Source: Bacillota bacterium (lineage in GTDB: Bacteria > Bacillota > Clostridia > Christensenellales > UMGS416). Taken from it: a DNA stretch of 64,000 nt. Where the stretch lies: contig JAEZSE010000021.1 of assembly GCA_023421955.1 (NCBI GenBank), forward strand, positions 9,701 through 73,700, given 5' to 3'. The notes under the pieces were generated by a model. The model ran no database searches and had not been told where the DNA came from. It was given only the letters and a program-made list of their open reading frames with translations. Both the position numbers and the translations under genes were made by a program. Positions 44,511 through 64,000 of this stretch are shown in pieces (the first letter of the stretch is position 1; each line of letters opens with the position of its first letter).

Positions 44511-44586
44511 GCCAATGTAGCTCAGTTGGCAGAGCAGCGGTTTCGTAAACCGCAGGTCAAGGGTTCGAATCCCTTCATTGGCTCCA
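44511..44586 (+). tRNA. tRNA-Thr (anticodon CGU), CCA encoded
   Basis: Hand-folded cloverleaf: acceptor GCCAATG/CATTGGC, D stem GCTC/GAGC, anticodon stem GCGGT/ACCGC with loop TTCGTAA, T arm AAGGG-TTCGAAT-CCCTT. Confidence 0.9.
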
Positions 44587-44590
44587 GTAT

Positions 44591-44667
44591 CGAGGTGTGG
44601 CTCAGTTTGGTAGAGCGCTGCGTTCGGGACGCAGAGGTCGTAGGTTCAAATCCTATCACCTCGACCA
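44591..44667 (+). tRNA. tRNA-Pro (anticodon CGG), CCA encoded
   Basis: Acceptor CGAGGTG/CACCTCG, D stem GCTC/GAGC, anticodon stem CTGCG/CGCAG with loop TTCGGGA, T arm GTAGG-TTCAAAT-CCTAT. Confidence 0.9.
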
Positions 44668-48514: not shown

Positions 48515-49428
48515 TAAATGAAGAATTGAGCGAGCTCACAAAAAAGGACAATCTGGTTAGGGGATATGTCTATCCATATCAGGGCATCCGAGACGAGTAC
48601 CTGTTCGAGCATTCCCCGTCCAACATCGCCAACTTCATCATGCTGCACGGGAAAGCGCGGGAGATCATCCTGACCGATATGCTGGACAATCTCATTTTGA
48701 ACACCATCGGCAACTTCATCGACCGCTGCCCGGACCAGACCCTGCTTCCCCGGATTCTGGAACACCTCATCCCCATGCAGACGGGCCAGCGAAAGCCCAA
48801 AGATATCTCGGCTGCCACCATGAAGGAGGTCAATGACTTCTACGAGGTGCAGGCCAGAGCTGCGGAATTCGATCCGATGCCCGAGCCGCCTCCTGATAGA
48901 GAAGCTCCCGCGGACGCCGGCTTCCATACGGTCCGGCTGGTTTCTCCGCTGCGCGTCTCAGCCTTCGATCCCGAGATCGACGAGTTCAACTACACTCCCA
49001 CACCTGTAAGCACCGCAGCTCCCTATGCCGACGAGATCAACCAGGCCATTGCGGGTAGCCTGGCAACAGAAACTCCGCGCGGGCTCATGGACTATTGGGA
49101 CGGTTCGGACGCCGTCGGAGAGAAGGTCGTCAGCCTCAAGCCTTCCATAGACTTTGTCGACGGCGAGCTGATGGGCTTATGCGACATGGCCTGCAAGGAC
49201 GGGCTGACGCCTGGCGAGTTGGCTGAAGTCAAGGATTACCTGAGCGGCCAGTACAGCGACGGCTGGGGTGAAGGGTTTGAACAACGCCCGATCAAAACGC
49301 CGGACGGAGAGCTTTACATCAGCTTCTGGAACTCGGAGAACTTCACCATTCGAACCGAACTGGAGCACAGCCGCGCTCACGCCCCGGTCACGCCAACCAA
49401 GTCGAAGCACCGCGACCCGCAGCGGTGA
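48511..49428 (+). CDS. Hypothetical two-domain protein (element backbone)
   Basis: 305-aa ORF with a Pro-rich linker in the middle. No motif recognised. Confidence 0.55.
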   Translation: MINEELSELTKKDNLVRGYVYPYQGIRDEYLFEHSPSNIANFIMLHGKAREIILTDMLDNLILNTIGNFIDRCPDQTLLPRILEHLIPMQTGQRKPKDISAATMKEVNDFYEVQARAAEFDPMPEPPPDREAPADAGFHTVRLVSPLRVSAFDPEIDEFNYTPTPVSTAAPYADEINQAIAGSLATETPRGLMDYWDGSDAVGEKVVSLKPSIDFVDGELMGLCDMACKDGLTPGELAEVKDYLSGQYSDGWGEGFEQRPIKTPDGELYISFWNSENFTIRTELEHSRAHAPVTPTKSKHRDPQR

Positions 49429-49479
49429 GCCGGCAGCAGCCCATTGGGCCTTCCGGCCCAGGAAAGGAGAATCATCCAT

Positions 49480-50259
49480 ATGGAAACCATCACTTCACCT
49501 CCCATCATGGAGAACGAAAACGTCCGTGAGCTTCTGTCCCTCCTGAAGGAAAACCGCGCTCCCACCATGCAGGATTTGCTCGACGTGCTCACCTATGTCG
49601 CCGAAATGGAACGGCAGTTCGGCGAGGCGCTGAACGAGCTGCAGGGCATACGGCAGGAACTGAGCGCGGCGCAGAAGTACAACCACCCGGCCAAGGCCAC
49701 GCTACAAAACGCGGTCAAAACAGTGGAGGAAAACGTCGCTACCCTGCGGGAACAGCTCGAGGCGATCAAGCAGAGCGTCATCGACGGCTGCAGGAATGCC
49801 GTAGCCGCCTTCAAGGAAAAAGGAATCGCCGCCATGGACAACATCGCCCGGTTCGTCAAAATCAAGCCCATGCTCGAATCCATGCGGGACAACCTGGCGA
49901 AAACGATCCAAACCGAAGACAAGGCGCTGGCCGCCATCGATACGGTCAGCGCCGAATATCACCAGGCCGGACGCCACGTGAAAAACATCATTCGCGCCGT
50001 GGCCGGAAAAGAGGCCGCACAGGACGTCAAGCCTGCCGGCAAGCTAGCGCGGGCGCTGCGCGCGCCTTTCCAACTGCTGCGTGCCGGCCATATGGCCATG
50101 AAGGACACGGTGGGACGGACCATCGGCAAGCTGGCCCAACTGGAGAAGGCCGCGGAGCGCAAGCCCTCGGTGGAAAAGACCATGCGGAAGTACCGCGAAC
50201 AGGCTCAGAAGGCCCCCAAGGCGCGTCCCGCTCCTAACGTCCACAGGGACGCCCGTTAG
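49480..50259 (+). CDS. Coiled-coil hypothetical protein (DUF6674-like)
   Basis: Long heptad-like helical sequence and a basic tail. AGGAGA lies upstream of METITS. Confidence 0.5.
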   Translation: METITSPPIMENENVRELLSLLKENRAPTMQDLLDVLTYVAEMERQFGEALNELQGIRQELSAAQKYNHPAKATLQNAVKTVEENVATLREQLEAIKQSVIDGCRNAVAAFKEKGIAAMDNIARFVKIKPMLESMRDNLAKTIQTEDKALAAIDTVSAEYHQAGRHVKNIIRAVAGKEAAQDVKPAGKLARALRAPFQLLRAGHMAMKDTVGRTIGKLAQLEKAAERKPSVEKTMRKYREQAQKAPKARPAPNVHRDAR

Positions 50260-50269
50260 GGGGATTCGC

Positions 50270-51202
50270 ATGGAACCCATCATCATTGGCATCGACCACG
50301 GCAACGCGGCCATGAAAACCCGCGGCTTCTGTTTCCCCTCCGGCATCGTGGAGTATGAGCACGAGCCATATACCAGCAAAGATGTGCTGGAATACGAGGG
50401 CCGGTTCTACGTCTGCGGCAGCGGCCGCCAGCCGCTCCTCCGGGACAAGACCCAAAACGACAGCTTCTATCTGCTCACACTGGCGGCGCTTGCCAAGGAA
50501 ATCGAAGCCAGGACGGGCGGCGGCAGAGCCTCGGTCATCGTTGCCGTGGGCCTGCCGCTGACCAGTTTTGGCAGAGAAAAAAAGAAGTTCAGGCGCTATC
50601 TCCTGCGCGATGGCGCACCGATCTGCTACCGTTACGAGGGCAAGCCATATGAGGTGACCATCGAAAACGTGCTGCTCTTCCCCCAGGGGTATGCGGCCGT
50701 TCTATCCCACATGGAACTGCTCTCGGGCGAGCCTTCCGTGATCCTCGCGGACATCGGCGGCTGGACGGTGGACGTCATGCGGCTGGACAACGGCATGCCC
50801 GACGCTTCCGCCTGCCGCAGCCTGGAACTCGGCATGATCCGCTGCCTCGATGAGATCGGGGAGCAGATCAGGCGCCGCATGGGGCTGTCACTGACCGCGG
50901 CGCAGATCGAAACCGTGCTGCGGGACGAATCCTGCGGCGTGGGCGAAGGGGCGAAGGAGATCGTCAAAATCGAAGGGCGCCGGTATGCCCAGCGGCTCCT
51001 GTCCGCCATCGCCGAAAGCGGCCTGGACACACGGGCCATGCCCGTCATCTTCATGGGCGGCGGCGCTGCGGTTATGAAGCGCCACGTGACGCCGCAGGAC
51101 GGCCTGTGCCGCGTGATCCCCCTCGAGGACGTATGTGCCAACGCCAAGGGCTATGAGCGTCTTGCGGGCCAATTGTCGCGGGGTGACGGGCATGCCGGAT
51201 GA
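50270..51202 (+). CDS. parM: ParM/StbA-family actin-like segregation ATPase
   Basis: Actin-fold phosphate-1 motif IIGIDHGNAAMK and phosphate-2/adenosine motif ILADIGGWTVDV. Confidence 0.8.
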   Translation: MEPIIIGIDHGNAAMKTRGFCFPSGIVEYEHEPYTSKDVLEYEGRFYVCGSGRQPLLRDKTQNDSFYLLTLAALAKEIEARTGGGRASVIVAVGLPLTSFGREKKKFRRYLLRDGAPICYRYEGKPYEVTIENVLLFPQGYAAVLSHMELLSGEPSVILADIGGWTVDVMRLDNGMPDASACRSLELGMIRCLDEIGEQIRRRMGLSLTAAQIETVLRDESCGVGEGAKEIVKIEGRRYAQRLLSAIAESGLDTRAMPVIFMGGGAAVMKRHVTPQDGLCRVIPLEDVCANAKGYERLAGQLSRGDGHAG

Positions 51203-51503
51203 AAAGCACAGGCTGAACCTCGCGCTGGACATGCGGATCGGGGATCATCGGCAGGCATGGGAAATCCTCTCCGCAATCCCCCGCGGGCGGCGGACGGACG
51301 CCGTCTGCAGGATGCTGATCGAGCATCGGGAGCAGTCCAGCCTCCAGAAGATCATCCAAAAGGCAGTACGGGAGGAACTGCGGGCATACGGCGGGCCGCC
51401 CGCCGGAACGACAACTCCAGAACATGCTCCGAAAGCCGGGGAAGTCAGAGATGACATCCTCGGCTTTTTGGTTGCCTTGCAAAAAGAAGGTGATGAAGAC
51501 TGA
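51192..51503 (+). CDS. Small DNA-binding adaptor candidate (ParR-like)
   Basis: 103-aa ORF overlapping the parM stop. The call rests on position and size only. Confidence 0.4.
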   Translation: MPDEKHRLNLALDMRIGDHRQAWEILSAIPRGRRTDAVCRMLIEHREQSSLQKIIQKAVREELRAYGGPPAGTTTPEHAPKAGEVRDDILGFLVALQKEGDED

Positions 51504-51517
51504 TACGCTACTTCGAT

Positions 51518-52714
51518 ATGTTCGCGGGGATCGGCGGCTTCCGGGCAGGGCTGTCCCTGCTCGACGGCTTCGAGTGCGTCGGCCACTGCGAGATCGACGC
51601 CCACGCCGACAATAGCTACCGCGCCATCCATAACCCGAAAGAAAGCGAGGTGTTCTACGCTGACGCCAGAACCATCGAACCGGGCGGTATGCCCGGCTTC
51701 GACCTGCTCTGCGGAGGATTCCCCTGCCAGAGCTTTTCTCTCGCCGGCAAGCGGCGAGGCTTCGATGATGCCAGAGGCACTCTTTTCTTTGAGATTGCCC
51801 GCTTGGCTCGAGCGAAGCACCCTTCGTATCTTCTGCTTGAAAACGTTCCGGGACTGCTATCGCATGACGAAGGCCGGACGTTTGCAACCATCCTCGCCAC
51901 GCTTTGCGACCTGGGGTACGGCCTGGAATGGCAGGTGCTTAACAGCAAGGATTTCGGAGTGCCCCAGTCCCGACGCCGGGTGTTCCTTATCGGATATCTT
52001 GATACCCGATGCGCCGGAAAGGTACTTCCTGTCCGAGAGGCAAATGGAAAGACTCTTGTACAGCTCATCGGCGGCCCCCACGGCTCAAGGGTATATGACC
52101 CCGCCGGACTGAGCTGCACGCTGACCGCGGACACTGGTGGCTTCGGCGGAAAGACCGGGCTGTATGTCGTAGGGTACCACGGGAAAACCGGACCGGCCGC
52201 AGCACATGGACCGGAAGATCCGCTCCGGCCATCTTCGTTCGTCGATCTCTCCCGCGGGAAGGCGAAGCTCACCGGTGCGGCTCGCTGCCTGACATCCAAC
52301 TACGGAAAGGCCGGCATCGGCAACCACAAGGCAGAATCGTCCGGCGTGCTGCTTGTTCGGGAAGGGACCAGGAAAGGTTACGCGGAAGCGCTGCCGGGTT
52401 ACAGCATCGACATCGGATACGCGGGCAGGAAGACCCGTGCCGGCCGCGTGAACAGTGTGTTCGCCCATGACGTGGCCGTGGGCGGCAATCAAGCCATCAT
52501 GACGGTGAACGGGCGCATCCGGCGCCTGACGCCGCGGGAGTGCCTGCGTTTACAGGGGTTCGCCGAGGACCAAATCGACCGGATGCTGGCCGTCACGTCA
52601 GATTCGCAGGCATACAAACAGGCGGGCAATTCCGTCACCGTCAACGTGATCCGCGCGCTGGGCCTGCGTATCAAGGCTATGGACGATGTACTGCGTGAGG
52701 GTGATGCTCCATGA
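51518..52714 (+). CDS. dcm: DNA (cytosine-5)-methyltransferase, orphan
   Basis: Motif I FAGIGGF, motif IV GGFPCQSFS, motif VI ENVPGLL, motif X QAGNSVTVNV. The true start may be the CTG/ATA at 51500-51503. No adjacent endonuclease. Confidence 0.9.
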   Translation: MFAGIGGFRAGLSLLDGFECVGHCEIDAHADNSYRAIHNPKESEVFYADARTIEPGGMPGFDLLCGGFPCQSFSLAGKRRGFDDARGTLFFEIARLARAKHPSYLLLENVPGLLSHDEGRTFATILATLCDLGYGLEWQVLNSKDFGVPQSRRRVFLIGYLDTRCAGKVLPVREANGKTLVQLIGGPHGSRVYDPAGLSCTLTADTGGFGGKTGLYVVGYHGKTGPAAAHGPEDPLRPSSFVDLSRGKAKLTGAARCLTSNYGKAGIGNHKAESSGVLLVREGTRKGYAEALPGYSIDIGYAGRKTRAGRVNSVFAHDVAVGGNQAIMTVNGRIRRLTPRECLRLQGFAEDQIDRMLAVTSDSQAYKQAGNSVTVNVIRALGLRIKAMDDVLREGDAP

Positions 52715-53661
52715 TCAAACAACAATGCTTCGGCGTGGAGATCGAAATGACCGGCATCACCCGCGAACAGGCGGCAAGGGCCGTGGCCGGCTATTTCAAC
52801 GCGGCTGGCCGGAACATCAGCGGTTCCTACACTTGGAGCGTCACGGACAACGAGGGAAAGGCATGGAAGATCGTAAGCGATGGCAGCATCGAGCCCGAAA
52901 TCAAATCCGGGGATACGTATATTCGAACCGCCAACAGTGAATACGCTGTCGAGCTTGTCACGCCAAAACTGACCTACGAGGAACTGCCCAAGCTGCAGGA
53001 GGTCGTCCGCACGCTGCGTCATGCAGGCGCTAAGGTTAACGAATCCTGCGGCCTGCACTGCCATATCGACGCAGCCAATCACAACCGCCAGAGCCTCAAG
53101 AATCTCATCGGCATCATGTATTCCAAGGAGGACATTCTGTTCAAGGCGCTGCAGGTCAACGAGAGCCGCTCCGCCCGTTACTGCCAGAAAGTCCGCGAGC
53201 CCATGCTGGAAAAAGCACGCCGGCTCTCCTCTGATGAAACCAAGGACTATACAAAGCTGGAGAGCATCTGGTACGAGGGCAACGTCAACACCACAGAGCA
53301 CTACAATTGGACACGTTATTACGCACTCAATTTACATTCTGTTTTTTACAGGGGTACTGTCGAGTTCCGCATGTTTAACTCGACGCTCCACGCCGGGCGC
53401 GTGGCCGCTTACGTGAACCTGTGCCTGGCCATTTCCGCTCAGGCCATCACTCAGCGCAGCACCGTCATGCAAAAGACCCAATCCGACAATGAGAAATTCA
53501 CGTTCCGGGTTTGGCTGGTTCGCCTGGGGCTCAACGGCGACGAATTCAAGAACACGCGCGACCACCTTCTGGCCAATCTGGAAGGCGACAGGGCGTGGAG
53601 ATATGACCGGGATAGCTACGAAAAACGAAAAGCCAAGAAGCCAAAAGAGATAGAGAGGTGA
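52711..53661 (+). CDS. Amidoligase family protein (Amidoligase_2, glutamine-synthetase-like fold)
   Basis: N-terminal FGVEIEMTG, VELVTP and GLHCHID motifs typical of the putative amidoligase family. The ATGA overlap joins it to the dcm stop. Confidence 0.75.
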   Translation: MIKQQCFGVEIEMTGITREQAARAVAGYFNAAGRNISGSYTWSVTDNEGKAWKIVSDGSIEPEIKSGDTYIRTANSEYAVELVTPKLTYEELPKLQEVVRTLRHAGAKVNESCGLHCHIDAANHNRQSLKNLIGIMYSKEDILFKALQVNESRSARYCQKVREPMLEKARRLSSDETKDYTKLESIWYEGNVNTTEHYNWTRYYALNLHSVFYRGTVEFRMFNSTLHAGRVAAYVNLCLAISAQAITQRSTVMQKTQSDNEKFTFRVWLVRLGLNGDEFKNTRDHLLANLEGDRAWRYDRDSYEKRKAKKPKEIER

Positions 53662-53667
53662 AACGGC

Positions 53668-53919
53668 ATGAAGATACGGATCGACGAAGACGTCTACGAG
53701 GGCTCCCCGGCCGATATCATCGACGACCTGCGGGAGCAGAGCCTCCACAAGGACGAATTCCCGAACACAAATAGCTTCCTCCGGTATATGCGCGACAGCT
53801 TCGTCCGTCTGACGGACATGCCATGCGAGCTGCCCGAGGGCGCCATCGACATCCGCGCCAGAGCGATGTTGGAGCAACTGGCGAATATCGACGCCCTCGA
53901 GATTCTGGAGAGCAACTGA
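53668..53919 (+). CDS. Small acidic hypothetical protein (83 aa)
   Basis: GAGAGAGG lies upstream. The stop overlaps the next start (TGATG). Confidence 0.55.
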   Translation: MKIRIDEDVYEGSPADIIDDLREQSLHKDEFPNTNSFLRYMRDSFVRLTDMPCELPEGAIDIRARAMLEQLANIDALEILESN

Positions 53920-54458
53920 TGGAAGAAACGCTTTACTTTTCCTACGGCTCCAACATCGACCTCAAGCAGATGGCCGTCCGCTGCCCGGCGGCAACGCCGG
54001 TACGCCCGGTGGTACTGGACAACTACCGGCTGGCCTTCCGCGGAAACCTGGGGTTCAACGGCGTGGCGACGATCCTGCCCGCGCGAAGCGAGAAGGTCTA
54101 CGGGTTGCTGTGGCGGATCACACCCGCTGATGAAAGGGCGCTCGACCGGTACGAGGGCTATCCCAATCTGTACGGCAAGGAGCGGATCACCGTACGTGAC
54201 CGGGACGGCAACACGTATACCGTCATGGCTTACATTATGACGCGAGAGCACATCCGAGAGCCTGCCGAGCCGTCCGAACCCTACTTCCAAGGCATCGTCA
54301 ATGGGTACCGTGAGAACGGCCTGCCCGCGCGGCCGCTGTTCGAGGCGCTGCAGCGGACACGCATCGAACTCGCCGAATTGGATGCGCAATCCTTCCGGCC
54401 CGAACCGAACCCGCCCTGGAAGCCTCGCTCCCACAAGAAAAGCGATCCCCAACGATAG
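53919..54458 (+). CDS. Gamma-glutamylcyclotransferase (AIG2/GGCT-like) family protein
   Basis: N-terminal YFSYGSN motif, and YEGYP..Y in the core. Confidence 0.75.
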   Translation: MEETLYFSYGSNIDLKQMAVRCPAATPVRPVVLDNYRLAFRGNLGFNGVATILPARSEKVYGLLWRITPADERALDRYEGYPNLYGKERITVRDRDGNTYTVMAYIMTREHIREPAEPSEPYFQGIVNGYRENGLPARPLFEALQRTRIELAELDAQSFRPEPNPPWKPRSHKKSDPQR

Positions 54459-54474
54459 AAAAGGAGAATGGAAC

Positions 54475-55248
54475 ATGAGAATCCTCAAAAACAAGCTCTT
54501 CCTCGGCATCCTGTGCATCGTAGCCGGCCTGCTGGCCGGCTTTGTCATTCTTCCCGCTGTCACGAACAGCGCAGCCGAAACCCGGCCGGTGCTGGTCATG
54601 AAAACGACGGTACAGGCAAGCACACAGATCACCGCCGACATGGTGACAACCCAGGAAATGCCGAAAAGTGCCTTCGCCGGCGCGTTGACGAAACCGGACG
54701 CGGCGGTCGGCAAATACGCCTCGGCAGAGCTGTACGCCGGGGACATACTGACCGTCGCCAAGCTGTCCGCCAGCCTGCTGGCGACGGATGCGATGGCCGC
54801 AGCTACAGCCAAGGGCAAGCAAGTTGTCTCTGTAACGCTGCCCAGCTTGGCCGCGGGCGTGTCCGGCCGCCTGCAGCCCGGCGATATCGTAGCGGTCATG
54901 GCGACGCCGAAAAACGGAAGTCGGTCGCTGGGCCTCGATCCCGACGCCAATACGGAGAAACAGCAGAATGGCGCCGCGGTCATCAAGAGATTGGAGAAAC
55001 TGGAGGTCTGTATGGTGACCACCAGCGACGCGGCGGACGCCCATGTGAGCGCCAATCCGTCCAAGGACGAGAAAAATGCGCTGCCCGCCACCGTTTCCTT
55101 CTATGTGACGCCGGAACAGGCTTTGATCCTGGCGGAGCTGGAACAGGACAGCACGATACACCTGGCCTTTGTCGCGCGCGGCGCTTCGGCCTCGGCCTAC
55201 CTGCCGGACGCGGACAAGGTGCTGGTGGGAACAACGGAGGGTAACTGA
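54475..55248 (+). CDS. cpaB: Flp pilus assembly protein CpaB/RcpC-like (SAF domain)
   Basis: N-terminal TM anchor, then a SAF-type region (ITADMVT...YAGDILT). AAAGGAG lies upstream. Confidence 0.75.
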   Translation: MRILKNKLFLGILCIVAGLLAGFVILPAVTNSAAETRPVLVMKTTVQASTQITADMVTTQEMPKSAFAGALTKPDAAVGKYASAELYAGDILTVAKLSASLLATDAMAAATAKGKQVVSVTLPSLAAGVSGRLQPGDIVAVMATPKNGSRSLGLDPDANTEKQQNGAAVIKRLEKLEVCMVTTSDAADAHVSANPSKDEKNALPATVSFYVTPEQALILAELEQDSTIHLAFVARGASASAYLPDADKVLVGTTEGN

Positions 55249-55937
55249 TGGTCATTGCCATTTGGGGGCGCGACGGCGCCGGCAAGAGCACGCTCAGCGA
55301 CGCGCTGGGCGTGCTCTTTTCCAAGCGGGGCGTCTGCGTCATCGTCGACACCGATCTGACCCAGCCAACGTTACCCGTGAGGTGCTCGGGCGAAGCCCAA
55401 AAAGGGGTGAAACCCCTGGGAAACGCGCTGACCGGCGCGGTCGTCACCGATATCCGCCCGTATCTGTGTCAGCATCCGGTGCACAAGGGCCTGTTCTACG
55501 CCGGTCTTCGTCGTAGCGACGATTTCCTGGCCTTCGAGCTGGGCCTCGGCGCGGAGGGCGGTGCGCGAAATTTCGTTGACCGCTGCGCCGAGCAGGCCGA
55601 CACTGTCATCCTCGATCTGTCCGGCCAGCGCAGCGACCCGTTCCTGCCCGCGGCATTGGAAGCCGACCATCTCATCCTGCCCGTCGTACCCAATCCGCAG
55701 GGCCTGTGCTGGTACCTGGCCGTGAAGCCGCTGCTGGAACGGATGGAAGCGCTGGAACGCGTCCTGCCTGTCGCGTCAATGGCGCGGCAGGAGCATGACG
55801 TGGCCGGAGTGGAAAAAGTTGGCGGGCTGGCATTCACCGCCCAACTGCCGTGGGTACGGGATACCGGCGGCAGCAAATACGCCAAAGAACTGAGGCCGCT
55901 GTTCGACAAACTCTCAGGAGGTGATACCGTTGCCTGA
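55248..55937 (+). CDS. ParA/MinD-like ATPase (TadZ/CpaE-like)
   Basis: Deviant Walker A IWGRDGAGKST. It sits between cpaB and the secretion ATPase. Confidence 0.65.
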   Translation: MVIAIWGRDGAGKSTLSDALGVLFSKRGVCVIVDTDLTQPTLPVRCSGEAQKGVKPLGNALTGAVVTDIRPYLCQHPVHKGLFYAGLRRSDDFLAFELGLGAEGGARNFVDRCAEQADTVILDLSGQRSDPFLPAALEADHLILPVVPNPQGLCWYLAVKPLLERMEALERVLPVASMARQEHDVAGVEKVGGLAFTAQLPWVRDTGGSKYAKELRPLFDKLSGGDTVA

Positions 55938-57246
55938 TACCTTTCGGGATCTGCTGTACAACCGGCAGAACACAAGCTCCTCGGATCTGAGCTACGAGGA
56001 CGTTCTGCGCGACGCGCGGGAATACATCAGCTGCACCCATGCAGATGAGCTGGCCCTGTGCATCGCCCAACGAAACTCCGCCGAGCGGGTGCAAAACCTG
56101 ATCGCCGGCTTCCTGGCCAAACACTACATCCGCCTGAACGGGCTGGACATCGAGGAACTCACCCAGCGGCTGTACTTGGACATGGCCGGCTTCGGCTTCC
56201 TGGAGCAGTATATCTACGACGATTCCATTGAGGAAATCAACGGCAACGCATGGAACGACATCGAGGTCGTCACGCAGACTGGATACCGCAAGGTGCCGGA
56301 GCACTTCGGTTCCCCTGAGCAGGCTACGGACATGATCAAGAAGATGGTGCGCCTGGGCGGGCTGATCCTGGACAATGCCAACCCCGCGGTGGACAGTTTC
56401 CTCACTACGCGCATCCGCATCTCCGCCATGATCCCGCCCATCACCGACCCGGAGCGTGGCGTAGTATTCAGCCTGCGCAAGCAGCAGAAGGCCCGCATCA
56501 CACGGGAGGAACTCATCCGGTCCGGCACCGCCAGCAGCGAGATGCTGGACTTCCTTTCCCTGTGCGTCAACCACGGCGTATCCATCGGCATTGCCGGCAA
56601 GACCGGCTCGGGTAAGACCACCGATCTCTCTTTCTTGCTGAACACGGTTGATACGGACAAGCGCATCTTCGTCATCGAGGAAACCCGCGAGCTGGACCTT
56701 GTCAATGAAGATGAGGACGGCAGGCCGCTGAACCGGGTCATTCACACCTGCACCCGCTCCTCGGAGCTGGAGCAAGCCGACGTGGGCATGACGGAGCTGC
56801 TGCGCAAGTCGCTGCGGTTCCATCCCGATCTGCTGGTACTCGCCGAGATGCGCGGCCAGGAGGCCGTGGACGTCGTGGAGAGCGCCCGCACCGGTCACAC
56901 GGTTCTCACATCGCTGCACGCGAACTCGGCGGCAAAGGCATATACCCGCATCCTGTCCATGTACCAGATGGCGGCGACGTCCATCCCGCCGCAGGTCATT
57001 CTGTCCTTCATCGTTGAAGCATTTCCGATCATGGTTTTCAAGAAACAGATGGCCGACGGCACGCGCCGCCTTATGGAGATCATAGAGGCGCTGGGCGTGC
57101 GGGAGGATGGCGTGCAGACCCAGACGCTATACCGCTTTGACGCACGGCTCGCACGGCATATGCGAGTGAATCCGATCTCTCCGGCGCTGGCGCGGGCATT
57201 GGCCGAGAACGACGCGCCGGAGGAACAAATCGAGCGATTCTCATAG
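55921..57246 (+). CDS. tadA: CpaF/TadA-type type II/IV secretion ATPase
   Basis: Walker A GKTGSGKTT, an Asp box, Walker B and a His box (GHTVLTSLHA). Confidence 0.9.
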   Translation: MIPLPDTFRDLLYNRQNTSSSDLSYEDVLRDAREYISCTHADELALCIAQRNSAERVQNLIAGFLAKHYIRLNGLDIEELTQRLYLDMAGFGFLEQYIYDDSIEEINGNAWNDIEVVTQTGYRKVPEHFGSPEQATDMIKKMVRLGGLILDNANPAVDSFLTTRIRISAMIPPITDPERGVVFSLRKQQKARITREELIRSGTASSEMLDFLSLCVNHGVSIGIAGKTGSGKTTDLSFLLNTVDTDKRIFVIEETRELDLVNEDEDGRPLNRVIHTCTRSSELEQADVGMTELLRKSLRFHPDLLVLAEMRGQEAVDVVESARTGHTVLTSLHANSAAKAYTRILSMYQMAATSIPPQVILSFIVEAFPIMVFKKQMADGTRRLMEIIEALGVREDGVQTQTLYRFDARLARHMRVNPISPALARALAENDAPEEQIERFS

Positions 57247-57260
57247 GAGGTGAACACCCT

Positions 57261-58163
57261 TTGGGCAACCTGATACCAGCCCTGCTGATCACGGCGGGGC
57301 TTTTCCTTTGCCTGCGTATCCTGTCGGGCAGACCGGCTGAGAAAGAAAGAAGCCGGCGCCGGCGCATCCGCTTCCTGTCGGGCAAGCCGCCCGGCAGGTT
57401 GGAGCGGATGGCAAGCGAAGCCGAGCAGATGCTGACGGCTGCCGGCATGAAGGCGCGGCTCCAGACTTATCAACGGCTGGCGCTGGCACTCGGCGTGGCC
57501 GGCTTGCTGGTAGGAGCGGCTATCGGCAATGTGCTGACCGCTGTGGTGCTGGCAGTCGGCCTGGCCGCCATGCCTCTTCTGATCATCCGCATCCGCACAG
57601 GCGACTACCTGCGCGGGTTGTACGAAAACCTGGAATCGGCGATGGGAACCGTCACCAATGCATATGTGGCGGGGGGCGATCTGATCCGCGCAGTGGAGGA
57701 CAGCCTTCGGCTGATTCCATCACCGGTGGACGAGGTGTTTCGGCAGTTCCTGTCCCGCGTCCAGCTCGTGGACGCCAGCGTCCCCAAGGCGCTGGAGGCG
57801 ATGAAAGGTCAAATCGACAACCGCTACTGGACCGATTGGGTCAATACCCTAATCCAGTGCCAGCACGACAAAACGCTGCGTTTCGCCCTGCCGGGAATCG
57901 TGGAGCGGCTGGGCGCCATGCGGCGCATTCGAATGGAGACGGATACATTGCTCCAGAAACAGATCGGCGATTACGTGGTCACGGTGCTCCTGCTGCTGGC
58001 CTCCATCCCGGTCATGGCCTGGATGATGCCCGACTGGTATGAGATGCTGACGCAGACCGTCGCCGGGCAAATCACGCTGGCCGTGGTGCTGGCGTCGGTA
58101 TTCGCCACGGCGTTGTGGATCGGCAGGCTGTACCACCCGAAGGAAGGCGGTGGTAAGGCATGA
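57261..58163 (+). CDS. tadB: Type II secretion system F-domain protein (TadB-like)
   Basis: Polytopic membrane protein with T2SSF layout. TTG start. Confidence 0.75.
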   Translation: MGNLIPALLITAGLFLCLRILSGRPAEKERSRRRRIRFLSGKPPGRLERMASEAEQMLTAAGMKARLQTYQRLALALGVAGLLVGAAIGNVLTAVVLAVGLAAMPLLIIRIRTGDYLRGLYENLESAMGTVTNAYVAGGDLIRAVEDSLRLIPSPVDEVFRQFLSRVQLVDASVPKALEAMKGQIDNRYWTDWVNTLIQCQHDKTLRFALPGIVERLGAMRRIRMETDTLLQKQIGDYVVTVLLLLASIPVMAWMMPDWYEMLTQTVAGQITLAVVLASVFATALWIGRLYHPKEGGGKA

Positions 58164-59038
58164 CCAGCTTGATCCGGGCACTCGCGGTGGCGCTGTTCGC
58201 CGCGGGGCTTTTCTTTTTCCTGTCGCACATCCTCCGTTTTCCATCCCGGAAGACGGCCAAGGCCCTTTCCGGCATCCACGGCAGACCCGGCCTGACCGAG
58301 CGGCTCCAGAAGCTGCTCTTTCCCTTGGCCGCGCTTTTGGCCCGCCTGTTCCCTATGAGCGCCTACCGCGAGAAGCGGATGCGCTCGGACTTCGAGCGGC
58401 TGGACATGACGCGGACACCGAAGGAATACGCCGCGTCGGAGCTGGCCAAGGCGCTTTTGCTGGGCCTGACGGGGTTCATCTTCATTCCGCTGGGTATGCC
58501 CTGGTTCGCGCTGCTGACCGGCATGCTGGGCCTCGTCAGCTATTTCCGCTCCACACAGGGCATCCGCAAACGGGTACAACAGCTTGACCGGGAGATCGAG
58601 GCGGAGATGCCGCGGCTGGTCGAAATGCTTAACCTTTCCTTTCAAGAGAGCCGCGACCTGATTTCTGTGTTCGAGCGGTACCGGCTGGTCTCGGGAAAAG
58701 CCCTGGGCAGCCAACTCGACCGGCTGATCCTGGACCTCAAGACGGGTAACCAGGAGCAGGCGCTCAAGGAAATGGACGCCCGCCTGAATCTGCCGTCCTT
58801 CTCGGCGCTGACGGCGGCGCTCTGCGGTGTGCACAAGGGGATCGACCAGCGCACCAGCCTGCTGGTACTTGAGCAGGACCTCCGCGCTTCCGAGCGGGAG
58901 CGCCTGCGCCGGGAGATGGAAACCGGCGAGAAACGCGTCAAGGCCGCCAGCTTCATCCTGACCATTTTGATGATCGGCCTGTTCATGATCCCCATCGTCC
59001 TGCTGATCCTGCGTAACCTGACAGCCGCCGGGCTGTAA
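58160..59038 (+). CDS. tadC: Type II secretion system F-domain protein (TadC-like)
   Basis: Second T2SSF-type polytopic protein, joined to tadB by an ATGA overlap. Confidence 0.75.
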   Translation: MTSLIRALAVALFAAGLFFFLSHILRFPSRKTAKALSGIHGRPGLTERLQKLLFPLAALLARLFPMSAYREKRMRSDFERLDMTRTPKEYAASELAKALLLGLTGFIFIPLGMPWFALLTGMLGLVSYFRSTQGIRKRVQQLDREIEAEMPRLVEMLNLSFQESRDLISVFERYRLVSGKALGSQLDRLILDLKTGNQEQALKEMDARLNLPSFSALTAALCGVHKGIDQRTSLLVLEQDLRASERERLRREMETGEKRVKAASFILTILMIGLFMIPIVLLILRNLTAAGL

Positions 59039-59113
59039 TACACAACGGTGAAACGCCTCGCAAGGGGCTTTTCATATGCCCTAATTCCAAAAAACTGAAG
59101 GAGGAACCCCCAA

Positions 59114-59329
59114 ATGAAAACCATCTCCAACCGCGTCCGCAACACCTTCCGCCGCCTCATTCACGACCGCCGCGGGGACGGCTACCTCGATCTAGCTATG
59201 AAAATCCTGATCGTCGTCGTCATCGGCGCCGCCATCCTGCTGATCCTCAATACCGCCATGCCCAGCCTGTTCAGCGGTCTCATCGAGAAGGTCAGCGGCG
59301 AGTTGACCAACATCAACGTCCTGCCGTAA
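59114..59329 (+). CDS. Flp-type prepilin candidate (71 aa)
   Basis: Basic leader, then GDGYLD followed by a single hydrophobic helix. GAAGGAGG lies upstream. Confidence 0.65.
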   Translation: MKTISNRVRNTFRRLIHDRRGDGYLDLAMKILIVVVIGAAILLILNTAMPSLFSGLIEKVSGELTNINVLP

Positions 59330-59343
59330 TCACCGGGTGGCCA

Positions 59344-59368
59344 GGGAGGGCCGGGGTCCGGCCCTCCC
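59344..59368 (+). terminator. GC-rich hairpin after the pilin gene
   Basis: Perfect 11-bp stem gggagggccgg / ggt / ccggccctccc with no U-run. Confidence 0.45.
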
Positions 59369-59395
59369 TCCCTTCATGGAAGAAAGGAGCGATAT

Positions 59396-59821
59396 ATGAA
59401 AAGAAGATTTGTCCGGGATTCCACCGGCGAAGGTTACGTCGACGTCGTTATTTCGATGCTGATCATCCTGACCTTTATAGCTTCCCTGTTTCTGTTGTAC
59501 CCGATCTTCACAGCCAAGCAATCACTGGATCAGACGGCGAAGTATGCCGCCCGAACCGTGGAGCTGTATGGTAAGGCGGATGACGCAACCCTCGCGTCTG
59601 TGTTCGACAATGAGAGCATCATGCGGCCCGACGATATTCAAATCCAAACCACATGGTTCAAGGAAGCGGAAAAGAAAATCCAGCTCAAGACAAGCTTCAC
59701 AGTCACGGTATCCAAGACAATCCCCATCACCATCCTGCGCCCGGCGCTGGGTAATCCCGTCGTCTTCCATGTAACCCTGACCGCCTCTGCCCGAGGCATT
59801 TCGGAGGTGTATTGGAAATGA
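59396..59821 (+). CDS. TadE/DUF4320-like pseudopilin
   Basis: The leader ends GEGYVD, followed by a hydrophobic helix and a beta-rich domain. Confidence 0.6.
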   Translation: MKRRFVRDSTGEGYVDVVISMLIILTFIASLFLLYPIFTAKQSLDQTAKYAARTVELYGKADDATLASVFDNESIMRPDDIQIQTTWFKEAEKKIQLKTSFTVTVSKTIPITILRPALGNPVVFHVTLTASARGISEVYWK

Positions 59822-60285
59822 CGCCGCTGATGAAAGACAAAGCAGGCAGCGCCTATCTGTGGGCCGTCTTCATCCTGTTGGCAATGGTCATGCTGGCAGC
59901 CGTTGTATATACCGGCGTGGGGGTTTATGCGAAATATCAGGACGCCGAAACCGAGCTGCAGCGGGCCGCCGTCGTAACGGTGGATGGCAGCATGGAAAAC
60001 GCTGCTGTGCGCGACTTGGTGCTGGATATTCCTACATCCGACGCGGAGGAACTGTTCTACGAAAACCTGCGCGAGCTGGGGTATGAGCAATCTGGTGGTG
60101 ATTGGGCCAAGCGGGTTGACGGCAAAACTGTCTATACCCTGACCGATCTGGAGGTTAAGACAACGGGTAAAACCCTGATGGCCACCGCGATTCTGTCCGT
60201 TCCGCTGCTGTGGGAAATAGGCGGTTCATCTACAGTACGCATCCCCATAAAAGAACGTTCGACCATACTGTACTTGGAGCCTTGA
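59812..60285 (+). CDS. TadE/TadF-like pseudopilin
   Basis: The leader ends GSAYLW, followed by a hydrophobic helix. It overlaps the preceding gene. Confidence 0.55.
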   Translation: MEMTPLMKDKAGSAYLWAVFILLAMVMLAAVVYTGVGVYAKYQDAETELQRAAVVTVDGSMENAAVRDLVLDIPTSDAEELFYENLRELGYEQSGGDWAKRVDGKTVYTLTDLEVKTTGKTLMATAILSVPLLWEIGGSSTVRIPIKERSTILYLEP

Positions 60286-60379
60286 TATGTTGTGGGAACG
60301 CATGGCTATCGGCATATATATGAAGAAAAGGGTATGAAAAAGAAGCTATGAGCGCGGCCTCATGGCTTCTAGCCGGAAA

Positions 60380-60691
60380 TTATCTTGCGATAAGTCCTTT
60401 TACAATGCCCGATATATGGGATAGCGATTGCTCATCCAGCCTCTTCAAATCTGCGATAAGGTTGGCGAGATGTTCCGGGTAGGCGTTCCCTTCATCAAAA
60501 AAGTCGCTGGGAGTAATGTTCAGATACTCGCAAATAGCGAAAAACGCCGGCATGGTGGGAAACACCTTCTTGTTCTCGATCTGATTGATGTAATTCCTGT
60601 TCTGTCCGATTGCCAGGCTCATTTCACGCGCGGAAATATTCTTCGCCGTGCGCAACCGCGCCAGGCGTTCCGCAAAAAACTCTTCATACAT
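60380..60691 (-). CDS. XRE-family helix-turn-helix transcriptional regulator
   Basis: HTH region ISAREMSLAIGQNRNYINQIE. Confidence 0.85.
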   Translation of the reverse strand: MYEEFFAERLARLRTAKNISAREMSLAIGQNRNYINQIENKKVFPTMPAFFAICEYLNITPSDFFDEGNAYPEHLANLIADLKRLDEQSLSHISGIVKGLIAR

Positions 60692-60740
60692 ATTATCATC
60701 TCCTTATGCAATATTCTATCTGGTGGATTAGATAAATCGG

Positions 60741-60792
60741 CCATTTATGAAATGGCATATGCATTGACATGCAAGAAATAAACTTGTATTAT
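60741..60792 (+). promoter_or_regulatory. Promoter with overlapping palindromes (candidate XRE operator)
   Basis: TTGACA (60764-60769), a 17-nt spacer, then TATTAT (60787-60792). The palindromes CCATTTatgAAATGG (60741-60755) and TGCATtgacATGCA flank or overlap the -35 element. Confidence 0.55.
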
Positions 60793-60830
60793 GTGGATTG
60801 TGCAATTTCTAAAATGTTTATGGGGAGTGG

Positions 60831-61310
60831 ATGGCAATGACTACCGGCCAGTTGGACAATGCTTGCTGCGTCACGGGACATCGTGAAATCCCCGCTGAAA
60901 TGCTGGAGTTTGTAGAGAACGAGCTGCGGAAAGAAATCACGCAAGCCATTAAAGACGGTTACACGCATTTCATCTCCGGTTTTGCGCAAGGTATTGATCT
61001 CCTTTTTGTCTCCATAGTGGTTGACCAGATGGTCGAATATCCCGATCTGACACTGGAAGCAGCCATACCATATAGGAAGCGGTTGAGCACTCCGGACCCG
61101 CTTTTTCAACGCCTGCTGGGAAATTGCAAAATCGTAGGTATCCATAGCGCAGAATACAGTGCAGCCTGTTATATGAAGCGCAACCGCGTCATGGTATCTA
61201 ATTCCAAACGTGTCATCGTGGTATATGGCGGACATCAAAGGGGCGGAACGCTGTATACCATGAACTACGCTAATATGCAGCACCGGGAAGTCCGCCTCAT
61301 TCAGATCTGA
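60831..61310 (+). CDS. SLOG-superfamily protein, DUF1273 / YpsA-like
   Basis: It aligns by eye with B. subtilis YpsA (VTGHRE..., HFISGFAQGIDL, EYPDLTLEAAIPY). The start may be the second ATG at 60837. Confidence 0.7.
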   Translation: MAMTTGQLDNACCVTGHREIPAEMLEFVENELRKEITQAIKDGYTHFISGFAQGIDLLFVSIVVDQMVEYPDLTLEAAIPYRKRLSTPDPLFQRLLGNCKIVGIHSAEYSAACYMKRNRVMVSNSKRVIVVYGGHQRGGTLYTMNYANMQHREVRLIQI

Positions 61311-61417
61311 GAACAAAAAATGCATAGCGGTAGCCTGCTGGTTTGAGAGCCGTCACCACGTGGCGGCTTTTACTGCGTCCTGTCGGCATCTGAATCCTGA
61401 AACTCAAAGGAGGGCCT

Positions 61418-64000
61418 ATGAAAAAAAGAAAGAAGTTCATCATGGCTGGGTTGGCTGTGATGGTTGTGCTGGCATCGCTCCTGCTGTTGGTCATGCCGGC
61501 ATTGGCGGTCAATGTCGGAACGCGGAATACGACCAACCTGTTCCAGGCCAACGGTTCTTCGGGCTGGGGTGACCTGAAGACGCCGGAGCACTACATCGTC
61601 GGTAGTTCCCCCGAACAAGTCGCTTACTGCCTTCAGCACAAAAACGACACTCCATCCAACTCACCCTATGGCTCGTCGGACATTCTCGGGAGCTACTCGT
61701 CCCGTGTGCAGACCGGCCTGCGGATTATCCTCGAAAACGGATACCCCTACGCTACCGGCGGTTTGTCGGCAGCGGAAGCGCGGTATGCCACGGCAAACTG
61801 CATACGATTCTGGCTGGCGGAAAATGGCGATTCGTCTCAATACAACTATTCCAACTTTGGCTCATATACGGATGCGCAGCTCCGAAGCATGGCGGCAAGC
61901 GGACAGATCGGGACCAAGATCAGGGCAAAGTCCGGGTATACCGACGTGCTGCAATTCTCTATCGAACTGCTGATCAAGGCACGCGCCCAAGACTTGATGG
62001 ACCATGATATAGGATTGTCCACGCCGTCCATGTCCATTAGCGGCAGTTACTTTGTCGGAACCTCCACGGTCACGCTGACCAACATGAATGGCGGGTATAC
62101 GCTCGATACTTCCGGCCTGCCAAGCGGTTCGAGCGTGACCGGCGACACTGGCAAATCAGGCGATACGCTGACGATCCGAATCCCTATGAATGAGGCCAAC
62201 GCCAATCGAACGTTCAGCGTGGCGGCGACGGGCAAGGATTCCAGGACACGTTCCAATGTCGCCGCATATGCGCCAAACGATAGCGATCTCCAACGGGTAA
62301 TCACCGCGGAACCTACGGAATACAACGCTGCCAAGACCGTATCGGTGTCCTTCGGGACACCGCAAATCTACGCCGATCTTGTAGTGACTGCGCTCAACGC
62401 CGACGCCTCCACCTATGACGCCGGGGATACTATCACGATCAGCGCCACGGTGATGAATCAGGGACTACGGTCGGCAGGCGGGTTTTATGTCGCCTTGACC
62501 TCGCCAGACCTGTCGACGCAGACCAAGTACATCTCATCACTGGCTGTGAACGCTTCCGCCAATGTGACGTTCACCTACACTGCTCCTCAATTCTCCGCCG
62601 ACAGAACCATATCGGTCGTGGCGACCGCAGACTCGACTGGCGCTGTACCGGAGAGCAATGAAGGCAACAATTCGCGCGGCGCTTCCTTCGTGGTCCGTGG
62701 GTTACCCGATCTGATCGTGTCGTCTCTATCCAGTGATGAGACGCAATACACCGCTGGCAACACGATCTCCATCACCGCGACGATCAAGAATCAGGGATAC
62801 AATACCGCGGCCGGGTTCTACGTTTCCTTATCCTCGCCGGATCTGTCGACACAGACCAAGTACATTTCCTCGCTGGCGGCGGGCGCGTCCACAAACATCA
62901 CGTTCACATATGCCGCGCCATCGCTTACGGCAACCAAGGCCATCACGGTCACGGCAACCGCCGACTCGACCGGGGTGGTGATAGAAAGTAATGAAGGCAA
63001 CAACACCCGGAGCGCAACCTTCACCGTGCTGGCGCTCCCGGACCTGATCGTGTCATCGCTATCCAGCGACAAGACGGAATACATCGCAAGCGACACGATC
63101 TCCATAACCGCGACGATCAGAAATCAGGGATATAACTCGGCAAGCGGATTTTATGTCGCCTTGACCTCGCTGGATCTGTCGACGCAGACTAAGTATGTTT
63201 CTTCACTGGCGGCAGGCGCGTCTACCAACGTGATATTCTCCTATACAGCGCCGTCGCTAACGGCAAGTAAAGCCATCACAGTCACGGCCACCGCCGACTC
63301 CACCGGCATCATTGCGGAAACCAACGAGAGTAATAACACCCGGAGCACGACATTCACCGTGCTGGCGCTCCCCGATCTGGTCGTGCCTGCTTTGACCTGC
63401 GACAAGCCTGTCTATGAAACCGGCGATACCGTGACGATCTCCGCAACGGCAAAAAACACCGGGCCGACCACGGCGGTGGCAACCACGGTCCGGCTTACCG
63501 TACCCGGCATAGGGACGTATGCCAAGAGCATCTCCGCACTGGCAGCAGGAGCAAGCCAGACCGTGCAGTTCATGTTCACTGCGCCAACCGCTCTGACTCC
63601 GCAAAGCATTACTATCACAGCTTATGTTGACCCGGACAATACCGTCCAGGAGAGCAATGAAAGCAACAATACCCGCACCGCCATCGTCGCTGTCAACGCA
63701 TTGCGGCCTGATATCGTGGTGACGGACTCCACGGTTACGGACTGGTATGCCGGTATGCAGGTCACAGTCTCGGCAACCGTTCGAAGCCAAACGGCGCAGC
63801 CTGTGCCAACGGTAGCAATCCGGCTTTCCATTGGCGGCGCCTCGTATACCGAGAACATTCCCATCGCCGGAAACGGGAGCAACCTCGCAGTGTTCCGAAT
63901 CACCGTGCCGGCAGCCGGGAACTATGTCGTTCAAATCACCGCGGACCCCAACGATGTACTGGATGAAACGAACGAGAGCAACAACTCCCTGACCAAGAAT
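61418..64000 (+). CDS. Large secreted surface protein with an N-terminal thioester-domain-like region and tandem CARDB repeats (3' end beyond window)
   Basis: AAAGGAGGG RBS and a signal peptide ending PALA. It carries AYCLQ / ILENGYP motifs and at least five CARDB units, each ending E(S/T)NExNN. The frame is open to position 64000 and is absent from the ORF track for that reason. Confidence 0.85.
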   Translation, partial: MKKRKKFIMAGLAVMVVLASLLLLVMPALAVNVGTRNTTNLFQANGSSGWGDLKTPEHYIVGSSPEQVAYCLQHKNDTPSNSPYGSSDILGSYSSRVQTGLRIILENGYPYATGGLSAAEARYATANCIRFWLAENGDSSQYNYSNFGSYTDAQLRSMAASGQIGTKIRAKSGYTDVLQFSIELLIKARAQDLMDHDIGLSTPSMSISGSYFVGTSTVTLTNMNGGYTLDTSGLPSGSSVTGDTGKSGDTLTIRIPMNEANANRTFSVAATGKDSRTRSNVAAYAPNDSDLQRVITAEPTEYNAAKTVSVSFGTPQIYADLVVTALNADASTYDAGDTITISATVMNQGLRSAGGFYVALTSPDLSTQTKYISSLAVNASANVTFTYTAPQFSADRTISVVATADSTGAVPESNEGNNSRGASFVVRGLPDLIVSSLSSDETQYTAGNTISITATIKNQGYNTAAGFYVSLSSPDLSTQTKYISSLAAGASTNITFTYAAPSLTATKAITVTATADSTGVVIESNEGNNTRSATFTVLALPDLIVSSLSSDKTEYIASDTISITATIRNQGYNSASGFYVALTSLDLSTQTKYVSSLAAGASTNVIFSYTAPSLTASKAITVTATADSTGIIAETNESNNTRSTTFTVLALPDLVVPALTCDKPVYETGDTVTISATAKNTGPTTAVATTVRLTVPGIGTYAKSISALAAGASQTVQFMFTAPTALTPQSITITAYVDPDNTVQESNESNNTRTAIVAVNALRPDIVVTDSTVTDWYAGMQVTVSATVRSQTAQPVPTVAIRLSIGGASYTENIPIAGNGSNLAVFRITVPAAGNYVVQITADPNDVLDETNESNNSLTKN
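62372..64000 (+). repeat. Tandem 333-bp coding repeats (CARDB units)
   Basis: Unit boundaries lie at 62372, 62705, 63038, 63371 and about 63704. Units 2 and 3 are nearly identical at the DNA level. Confidence 0.85.

Follow-up and report, generated by a model that had tools for sequence, protein, structure and literature searches.

Introduction

Tad pili are known for their role in adhesion to surfaces or hosts, and in textbooks Gram-positive conjugation relies on surface adhesins, not on pili. Here we describe a pilus locus at positions 54475-60285 of a 64,000-nucleotide stretch (hereafter the window) of contig JAEZSE010000021.1, from a Bacillota bacterium of the Christensenellales (assembly GCA_023421955.1). 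Judging from its genes, the locus and a prepilin peptidase gene on the same DNA very probably encode a complete Tad-type (type IVc-like) pilus machine of an integrated clostridial mobile element, whose fibre may bring conjugating cells together.

The module shares with the Cpa system of Caulobacter and the Tad system of Aggregatibacter actinomycetemcomitans a CpaF-clade ATPase, CpaB, a small pilin with two larger pilin-like proteins and a small A24 peptidase. A putative ParA-like ATPase takes the place of TadZ/CpaE, and two paralogous, single-domain membrane proteins are candidates for the platform. Unlike them, it has no secretin, TadD or TadG, its TadZ is devoid of the N-terminal domain, and its pilins fall outside the Flp_Fap and TadE models, with a [GA][DE]G[FY][LI]D motif instead of G/XXXXEY. 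It also differs by its location on mobile elements and by the gene for a large thioester adhesin between the pilins and the peptidase.

Secretin-less Tad machineries are found in other Gram-positive bacteria, such as Bifidobacterium breve (tad2003) and Micrococcus luteus. Those systems are chromosomal, possess canonical Flp, TadE and TadF proteins, serve gut colonisation or transformation and have no known tie with a type IV secretion system (T4SS). In such actinobacterial systems, for example in Bifidobacterium, tadV may sit apart from the main tad operon. Closer in genetic setting are the Flp plasmids of Cutibacterium acnes, where a Tad locus is found on a Gram-positive plasmid with conjugation-like genes; the authors considered the link between the pili and the conjugation apparatus unclear (PMC5696575). 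That system is actinobacterial with canonical Flp-type genes, and we liken it to ours by description, not by sequence.

The module belongs to the same family as the loci of the Terrisporobacter plasmid pTPHSE1 and of Clostridioides difficile plasmids. All module proteins have homologues there, with identities to pTPHSE1 of 30% for CpaB, 37% for CpaF, 25% for TadB, 24% for TadC, 31% for the DUF4320 protein and 25% for the A24 peptidase. In those plasmids, unlike in the window, pilin and peptidase genes lead the operon, there is no thioester-domain (TED)/CARDB adhesin, and the T4SS genes are directly adjacent. Ramirez-Vargas et al. (2018) reported 'a tad-like locus' on putative conjugative plasmids of C. 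difficile and listed it alongside putative virulence factors (PMC6141592), and a 2017 C. difficile genome paper mentioned CpaB, CpaE and CpaF as products of a contig suspected to be a plasmid (PMC5337907). The module is a divergent variant of a known system, in a family that the literature knows only as a 'tad-like locus'. Our literature searches found no paper on DUF4320 or DUF6133 and nothing specific on Tad systems in Gram-positive conjugation; in a 2025 T4SS review the word 'Tad' is absent (PMC12857230).

A functional analogue is the thin pilus of IncI plasmids (R64, TP114; type IVb), a type IV filament of a conjugative element that bears adhesins and supports mating in the gut or in liquid. 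The type IV pilus of TP114 (IncI2) carries adhesins on display and plays an important part in gut transfer (PMC9045228). The thin pilus differs from the module by its PilQ, PilR, PilS and PilV proteins, its shufflon and its diderm hosts, with homology at the superfamily level only.

Organisation of the pilus module

The ORF listing places eight open reading frames (ORFs) on the plus strand of 54475-60285, where a preliminary description of this DNA had put them. The features of the module are as follows.

54475-55248, plus strand: CpaB/RcpC-like pilus assembly protein with an N-terminal membrane anchor (Pfam, NCBIfam)
55248-55937, plus strand: ParA/MinD-like P-loop ATPase in the TadZ/CpaE position, 229 residues (sub-threshold matches, gene position)
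55930-57246, plus strand: CpaF/TadA-type secretion ATPase, 438 residues, with an alternative GTG start at 55921 (Pfam, PDB relatives)
57261-58163, plus strand: polytopic membrane protein in the TadB position, about 300 residues, putative platform protein (position, paralogy)
58160-59038, plus strand: polytopic membrane protein in the TadC position, about 300 residues, putative platform protein (T2SSF matches of homologues, position)
59114-59329, plus strand: pilin 1, DUF6133, 71 residues, candidate major pilin (Pfam PF19629)
59344-59368, plus strand: GC-rich 11-bp hairpin 3' of the pilin-1 stop codon (folding)
59396-59821, plus strand: pilin 2, DUF4320, 141 residues, candidate minor pilin (Pfam PF14208)
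59818-60285, plus strand: pilin 3, 155 residues, without family, candidate minor or tip pilin (profile match of the N-terminus)
66250-66696 in window-equivalent numbering (16855-17301 of contig L001), outside the window: A24 prepilin peptidase, 148 residues (Peptidase_A24 match)

Four of the seven junctions between the eight genes overlap by 1-8 nt, one has a gap of 14 nt and two have gaps of 66-75 nt, so that calling the genes mostly coupled, as the preliminary description did, is fair. Its assignment to the Tad type is borne out by a CpaB above the family cutoff, a CpaF-clade ATPase and prepilin-like small proteins. No secretin was seen in the window, as it had also stated for 54.4-60.3 kb; the absence of secretin, TadD and TadG is expected for a monoderm.

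A prepilin peptidase encoded beyond the window edge

The preliminary description had noted the lack of a prepilin peptidase and called for a search of the rest of the element. Six-frame translations of the 64-kb window were searched with a hidden Markov model (HMM) of 12 such peptidases, and the best A24 match had an E-value of 0.94; as a positive control, the same model gave 4.9e-58 on the extension just outside the window. That extension comes from contig L001 (the L numbers denote the loci that we compared), which was retrieved through an exact match to the DUF4320 protein. Over window positions 49396-64000 the identity of L001 with the window is 100%, and the contig then continues for 5.8 kb. 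After the adhesin gene it encodes a Spo0E-like protein, a NYN protein and a 148-residue Peptidase_A24 protein (4.1e-15) with both catalytic Asp motifs, SDLQKREIPN and GGGDVKL, of which D25 and D83 are invariant in 12 homologues. This enzyme is small and without methyltransferase domain, as is typical of the TadV/CpaA type, and its gene lies 2.2 kb past the window end, about 6 kb downstream of pilin 3. Two further independent assemblies repeat the arrangement, which counters the idea of a chimeric assembly. As the identical contig runs on and encodes the peptidase, its apparent absence is a window-edge effect: it is true of the 64 kb, but not of the element.

Directly 3' of the peptidase gene we also noticed a 31-residue ORF (L001 17322-17417, window-equivalent 66717-66812; MDLKTILAVGLCLFIAGGAVFLFIRNRRNQK) with homologues in L004, L005 and L012. 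Its product consists of one membrane helix and a basic tail and resembles the end of an LPXTG sorting signal without the LPXTG.

Three divergent prepilin-like proteins

The motifs GDGYLD, GEGYVD and GSAYLW are present in the three small proteins, and a hydrophobic stretch some 20 residues long comes after each of them. Pilin 1 matches PF19629 (DUF6133, 2.2e-8) and has a Flp-like architecture, with a basic leader, a Gly, a single helix and about 50 mature residues. An alignment of 54 sequences shows no variation at G23, at D26 or in the KIL-VV-GAA stretch that comes next, and the other helix positions are at least 90% conserved; among 120 homologues the motif reads [A63/G57]-[E/D]-[G119/A1]-[F/Y]-[L/I]-D120. 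The pilin 1 gene is preceded by a strong Shine-Dalgarno site and is doubled in L005 and in pTPHSE1. The hairpin downstream of it has a perfect 11-bp stem and no U-tract; the z-score of the 81-nt stretch, -0.9, is not significant in its GC-rich context. It is possible that this hairpin stabilises the mRNA or acts as an attenuator, which could raise the amount of pilin 1 relative to the downstream products.

Pilin 2 matches PF14208 (DUF4320, 3.9e-21), with a weak DUF6133 match at its N-terminus; D16 is invariant and G13 at least 90% conserved. In pilin 3, G10 is invariant across 11 homologues, and the acidic residue of the motif is absent from the protein and from all its aligned homologues. As such an absence is typical of initiator or tip pilins, pilin 3 is a candidate for that role.

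The prepilin-like nature of the small proteins, proposed in the preliminary description, is corroborated by profile comparisons of their N-termini and by the A24 peptidase that accompanies nearly all long loci. The leader, motif and helix of pilins 1 and 2 are homologous (hhalign probability 95.7%, E-value 8.7e-9), and the N-terminus of pilin 3 matches the other two more weakly (83%, with an E-value of 9e-6, for pilin 2 and 62% for pilin 1). A leader-motif-helix unit common to three pilins is a hallmark of the pilins of one type IV system.

The motif differs from the canonical G/XXXXEY site of Flp pilins, with which an alignment had been suggested: [GA][DE]G[FY][LI]D contains an Asp and no Glu-Tyr pair. 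The cleavage position is ambiguous. In a first register, favoured by cross-family alignments, cleavage would occur after the first small residue (G21 in pilin 1, G11 in pilin 2, G10 in pilin 3), placing the Asp of pilins 1 and 2 at +5, like Glu5 of canonical pilins. In a second, cleavage would follow the near-invariant Gly before the aromatic residue (G23 in pilin 1, G13 in pilin 2); it is favoured by conservation within families and by the C. difficile homologues, which have that Gly alone. For comparison, mature Caulobacter PilA starts with ATAIEYGLI (PDB 8u1k), and a pilin homologue of an Oscillospiraceae plasmid, GG/VSAEQGLI, looks intermediate to Flp. The leaders of some pilin-3 homologues contain KDESG, which resembles what we take to be the end of the Caulobacter PilA leader (...KDESG).

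None of the pilins matched Flp_Fap at E-values up to 1, nor was there a match to the TadE model, pilins 2 and 3 being assigned to DUF4320 or to no family. The pilins therefore form a divergent branch, in which pilins 2 and 3 occupy positions analogous to those of TadE and TadF. A homologue search with a concatenated pilin 2 and pilin 3 query gave no match.

Assembly machinery

CpaB matches the Pfam models RcpC (2.1e-12) and SAF (1.2e-9) and exceeds the cutoff of NCBIfam TIGR03177 (78.1 bits versus 71), and its gene is kept in all related loci. The CpaF protein matches T2SSE (4.7e-30) and shows a Walker A motif (GKTGSGKT), an Asp-box/Walker B and a His-box. Its closest solved relatives are structures of Caulobacter CpaF (8rkd and 9e24, 3.8e-37), with archaeal GspE2, FlaI, VirB11 and PilT ranking behind; the best NCBIfam model is TIGR03819 ('TadA family conjugal transfer-associated ATPase'), below its cutoff. 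These similarities assign the ATPase to the TadA/CpaF clade of secretion ATPases.

The protein encoded between cpaB and cpaF, a position that is consistent in related loci, has the Walker A sequence GRDGAGKST and no N-terminal receiver-like domain. Its plasmid homologues are annotated as ParA or AAA ATPases. The TadZ label is weak, being drawn from low similarity and from gene position.

The TadB and TadC copies of the window have no Pfam match, T2SSF included, and neither gave a hit among PDB sequences, whether searched by sequence or by profile. The two proteins are paralogous (hhalign probability 75%, E-value 2.5e-5 over 254 columns). Two of ten TadC homologues reach T2SSF (best E-value 1.6e-4), and plasmid homologues of TadC carry the annotation 'secretion protein F'. 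A type IV filament, rather than a T4SS pilus, is indicated by the combination of platform paralogues, A24 peptidase and single-helix pilins. On the same grounds we dropped VirB11 and VirB2 as identities for the ATPase and the small proteins.

Conservation of a ten-gene unit

From GTDB genomes (Christensenellales, Clostridiaceae and Bacillota metagenome-assembled genomes, MAGs) we compared ten loci, whose CpaF proteins are 48-85% identical to that of the window. The conserved order is cpaB, tadZ, cpaF, tadB, tadC, pilin 1 (DUF6133), pilin 2 (DUF4320), pilin 3, adhesin and peptidase. The exceptions are L007 and L013, without matches to pilins 1 and 3, and L007 has the adhesin gene upstream. Four further contigs (L017-L020) keep the order, L017 being devoid of the first four genes and part of tadC. 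The peptidase gene is present in every genome locus that extends far enough and in the five plasmids described below. Every one of the 27 metagenome loci that measure 15 kb or more encodes pilin 2 and the five assembly proteins, and 26 have the A24 gene. With 253 homologues of pilin 1, more than 502 relatives of DUF4320 in the metagenome scan and 688 representative clusters of TadB, the module is widespread in gut and anaerobic-digester Clostridia.

In L017 the ORF of a 700-residue large serine recombinase (7774-9876) continues directly into the final 230 codons of tadC. The part homologous to intact modules begins at tadC codon 63, and cpaB to tadB are absent. It appears that another element inserted into the pilus module or truncated it. 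The 2.47-Mb contig JAXGMA010000001.1 of a Christensenellales MAG contains three copies (L004, L008 and L010), with CpaF proteins 85%, 57% and 56% identical to that of the window; these are several related elements within one genome. Finally, unannotated 'Bacteriophage sp.' contigs of human faecal viromes (GenBank MT835617.1, our L022, MT838517, MT838991 and MT839932) harbour modules with the plasmid-type order DUF6133-A24-CpaB-...-DUF4320-P3, where P3 denotes pilin 3. They are probably plasmid fragments or fragments of integrative and conjugative elements filed as phage.

T4SS genes next to homologous modules

A megablast search with the 5.8-kb module gave no match among plasmids, and five plasmids were found by searches at the protein level. 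In all five, the module is located beside T4SS genes on the same strand. The module of pTPHSE1, with the order DUF6133 (twice)-A24-CpaB-...-DUF4320-P3, is directly followed by genes for a VirD4-like protein (CD1115 family), a pLS20_p028-family protein, a topoisomerase, DUF5592, a 634-residue VirB4-like protein, a C40 peptidase and a MobP2 relaxase, and C. difficile LIBA6289 has the same layout. In the C. difficile toxin plasmid pHSJD-312, genes for PrgI, an 871-residue VirB4 ATPase and NlpC/P60 are found directly upstream of the module. The plasmid of Oscillospiraceae MB08-C2-2 has the module and a gene for a 1610-residue protein, then DUF3991/Toprim, DUF3852, TrbL, DUF87 and M23 genes, and that of Subdoligranulum variabile has VirB4-like and VirD4-like genes upstream of the module. 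Of the 27 long metagenome loci, 17 also encode a VirB4 or VirB6 homologue on the same strand, no more than 10 kb downstream (E-values down to 1e-80), and these 17 span at least seven distinct lineages.

A secreted thioester adhesin and a copy-specific insertion

In most relatives the adhesin gene lies between those of the pilins and the peptidase. The window shows the following features downstream of pilin 3.

60380-60691, minus strand: Xre-type helix-turn-helix (HTH) protein (Pfam)
60837-61310, plus strand: YpsA/SLOG protein (Pfam)
61418-64000, plus strand, ending at window-equivalent 64642: secreted adhesin with a thioester domain and CARDB repeats, 1074 residues (Pfam)

The Xre and YpsA/SLOG genes are an insertion unique to the window copy that separates pilin 3 from the adhesin; in L004, L008, L012 and L017-L020 there is no such insertion and the adhesin gene directly follows pilin 3. 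The adhesin contains five CARDB repeats (3.3e-85), a TED thioester domain with the sequence YCLQHK (5.9e-5) and, according to precomputed Pfam data, a C-terminal DUF8195. It has a Sec signal peptide and neither an LPXTG motif nor a membrane anchor. With a Sec signal and no anchor, something must retain or display it; from the place of its gene between pilins and peptidase, docking on the pilus is conceivable.

Element context

The first 44.4 kb of the window are chromosomal housekeeping genes (RecG, Hsp33, glycoside hydrolases, ApbE), and the junction of chromosome and element is marked as follows.

44511-44667, plus strand: tRNA-Thr(CGT) and tRNA-Pro(CGG), left chromosome/element junction (ARAGORN)

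From 45.3 kb a single plus-strand array encodes a DUF3991/Toprim primase, SSB, a ParB-like protein, DUF6674, ParM/Alp, a C5 methylase, Amidoligase_2 and GGACT, before the pilus module. The DUF6674 protein (4.9e-76; 49444-50259) and the actin-like ParM/Alp segregation ATPase (50270-51202) are plasmid-type partition genes on an integrated element. Immediately upstream of cpaB, positions 52711-54458 comprise an Amidoligase_2 gene (2.1e-66), an 83-residue ORF and a GGACT/AIG2-like gene, with intergenic distances of at most 16 nt. L004 and L005 have the same trio, and several metagenome loci contain amidoligase homologues downstream of VirB4. The downstream extension also encodes MetK, an HTH protein, DUF7768, an N6/N4 methylase and Fic.

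About 29 kb of the element can be read, from 44.7 to 64 kb of the window and in a 9.5-kb extension (L001 and L016). The ENA contigs k141_31998 and NODE_185, which come from two independent assemblies, stop within about 24 bp of each other at window-equivalent ~73.5 kb, beyond Fic and 3.1 kb downstream of the HTH_7 gene, with Fic immediately before the break. Their common end point suggests that the element contains a repeat; an exact 45-mer from this end had no match in metagenome contigs. The preliminary description spoke of a mobile element with a conjugative backbone. The element-type genes that follow the tRNA junction lend good support to the first part of this claim, but conjugative genes, whether T4SS, relaxase or integrase, were not found in the ~29 kb, and that the window element is conjugative is unproven, with the sequence ending at ~73.5 kb.

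Discussion

Our favoured explanation combines a self-sufficient Tad-type pilus module with a role in contact between donor and recipient, and we give it a probability of roughly 60%. The A24 peptidase would remove the basic leaders of 10-23 residues at the Gly that adjoins the hydrophobic helix. Pilin 1 would then be polymerised by CpaF with the platform proteins into a thin, Flp-like fibre through the monoderm wall, which pilins 2 and 3 might prime or cap, pilin 3 resembling tip or initiator pilins by its lack of the acidic residue. Together with the co-encoded thioester adhesin, the fibre would bring donor and recipient together for conjugative transfer, and the module would thus be a monoderm counterpart of the IncI thin pilus. 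On the mating role taken by itself, we regard the odds as even. Stabilisation of mating pairs had been suggested in the preliminary description; the T4SS genes beside the module in five of five plasmids and 17 of 27 metagenome loci strengthen this proposal, which stays conditional.

A number of observations weigh against this explanation. The ATPase in the TadZ position has only sub-threshold matches (ParA_partition 7.4e-6; CpaE_hom_Actino 7.3e-4), and T2SSF was matched by a single one of 114 TadB relatives scanned with Pfam. The pilins fail the Flp and TadE models of Pfam, and their cleavage site is ambiguous between two registers. Single-sequence AlphaFold2 models predict a helix at 12-58 followed by three strands for pilin 2, and helices at 8-47 and 76-86 (the latter short) with strands for pilin 3; given their low confidence (predicted local distance difference test scores, pLDDT, of 63 and 51) and a Foldseek search of the PDB that found nothing below an E-value of 0.26, they count as no evidence. 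As for conjugation, Pfam and tblastn searches with plasmid T4SS proteins of the readable ~29 kb of the element detected neither VirB4 or a coupling protein nor a relaxase or integrase, and in the closest relatives (L004-L012 and L017-L020) no T4SS, relaxase or integrase gene was found within 10 kb. Tad pili of other bacteria serve surface or host adhesion, and the thioester adhesin could equally target host material. Lastly, our literature search found no experimental report on members of the module or on transfer by pilus mutants.

It is tempting to go further and to speculate that a retractile pilus of the Tad type serves clostridial conjugative elements as a true mating pilus. A fibre of pilin 1 with a tip of pilins 2 and 3 would capture recipients by displaying, or acting jointly with, the thioester adhesin and its covalent bonds, and a bifunctional CpaF would pull the cells together for the adjacent T4SS. 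To our knowledge, Gram-positive conjugation is generally thought to lack a mating pilus, and we put this idea forward tentatively, as possible rather than probable.

Alternatively, the module might be cargo, an adhesion or colonisation pilus for mucus, host, plant fibre or biofilm that mobile elements carry without any role in DNA transfer. Adhesion is the established role of Tad/Flp pili, the thioester and CARDB domains of the neighbouring protein are typical of host or matrix adhesins, and the sub-family of the window has no T4SS gene within 10 kb; likewise, the C. difficile plasmid paper groups the 'tad-like locus' with putative virulence factors (PMC6141592). However, the repeated placement on the same strand beside at least three different T4SS gene sets exceeds what one would expect of interchangeable cargo and argues for a functional partnership rather than chance, and the three copies of a single MAG are each found on a separate element-like locus. 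We therefore consider mere carriage of an adhesion pilus rather unlikely.

A device for DNA uptake, or a pseudopilus that acts as a wall-piercing piston to export or position the adhesin or T4SS parts, appears improbable. The Flp/Tad-like pilus of M. luteus has been linked to transformation (PMC12378983; PMC5696575), an adhesin with a Sec signal and no anchor needs retention or display, and a SLOG/DprA-like gene is nearby. Yet that gene belongs to the insertion specific to the window copy, none of the loci examined combines the module with a ComEA, ComEC or DprA set, and the small, Flp-like pilin 1 is of the kind seen in systems that form fibres. That the module has no peptidase of its own, and either needs a chromosomal enzyme acting in trans or is an unprocessed relic without function, might have been supposed from the window alone and from the separate tadV genes of organisms such as Bifidobacterium, but is refuted by the identical extended contig with its intact A24 gene, syntenic in all adequately long relatives and in 26 of 27 metagenome loci, and by eight intact ORFs, and is hardly tenable.

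If the pilus that we propose for donor-recipient contact turned out to serve adhesion only, the module would be a routine mobile colonisation factor. Its pilins have so far been filed only as DUF6133 and DUF4320, and it often adjoins T4SS genes, including those of C. difficile toxin plasmids. Cultivable carriers exist, namely C. difficile, Terrisporobacter and Oscillospiraceae MB08-C2-2. Should the mating role be true, the module would affect the spread of toxin and resistance plasmids in the gut.

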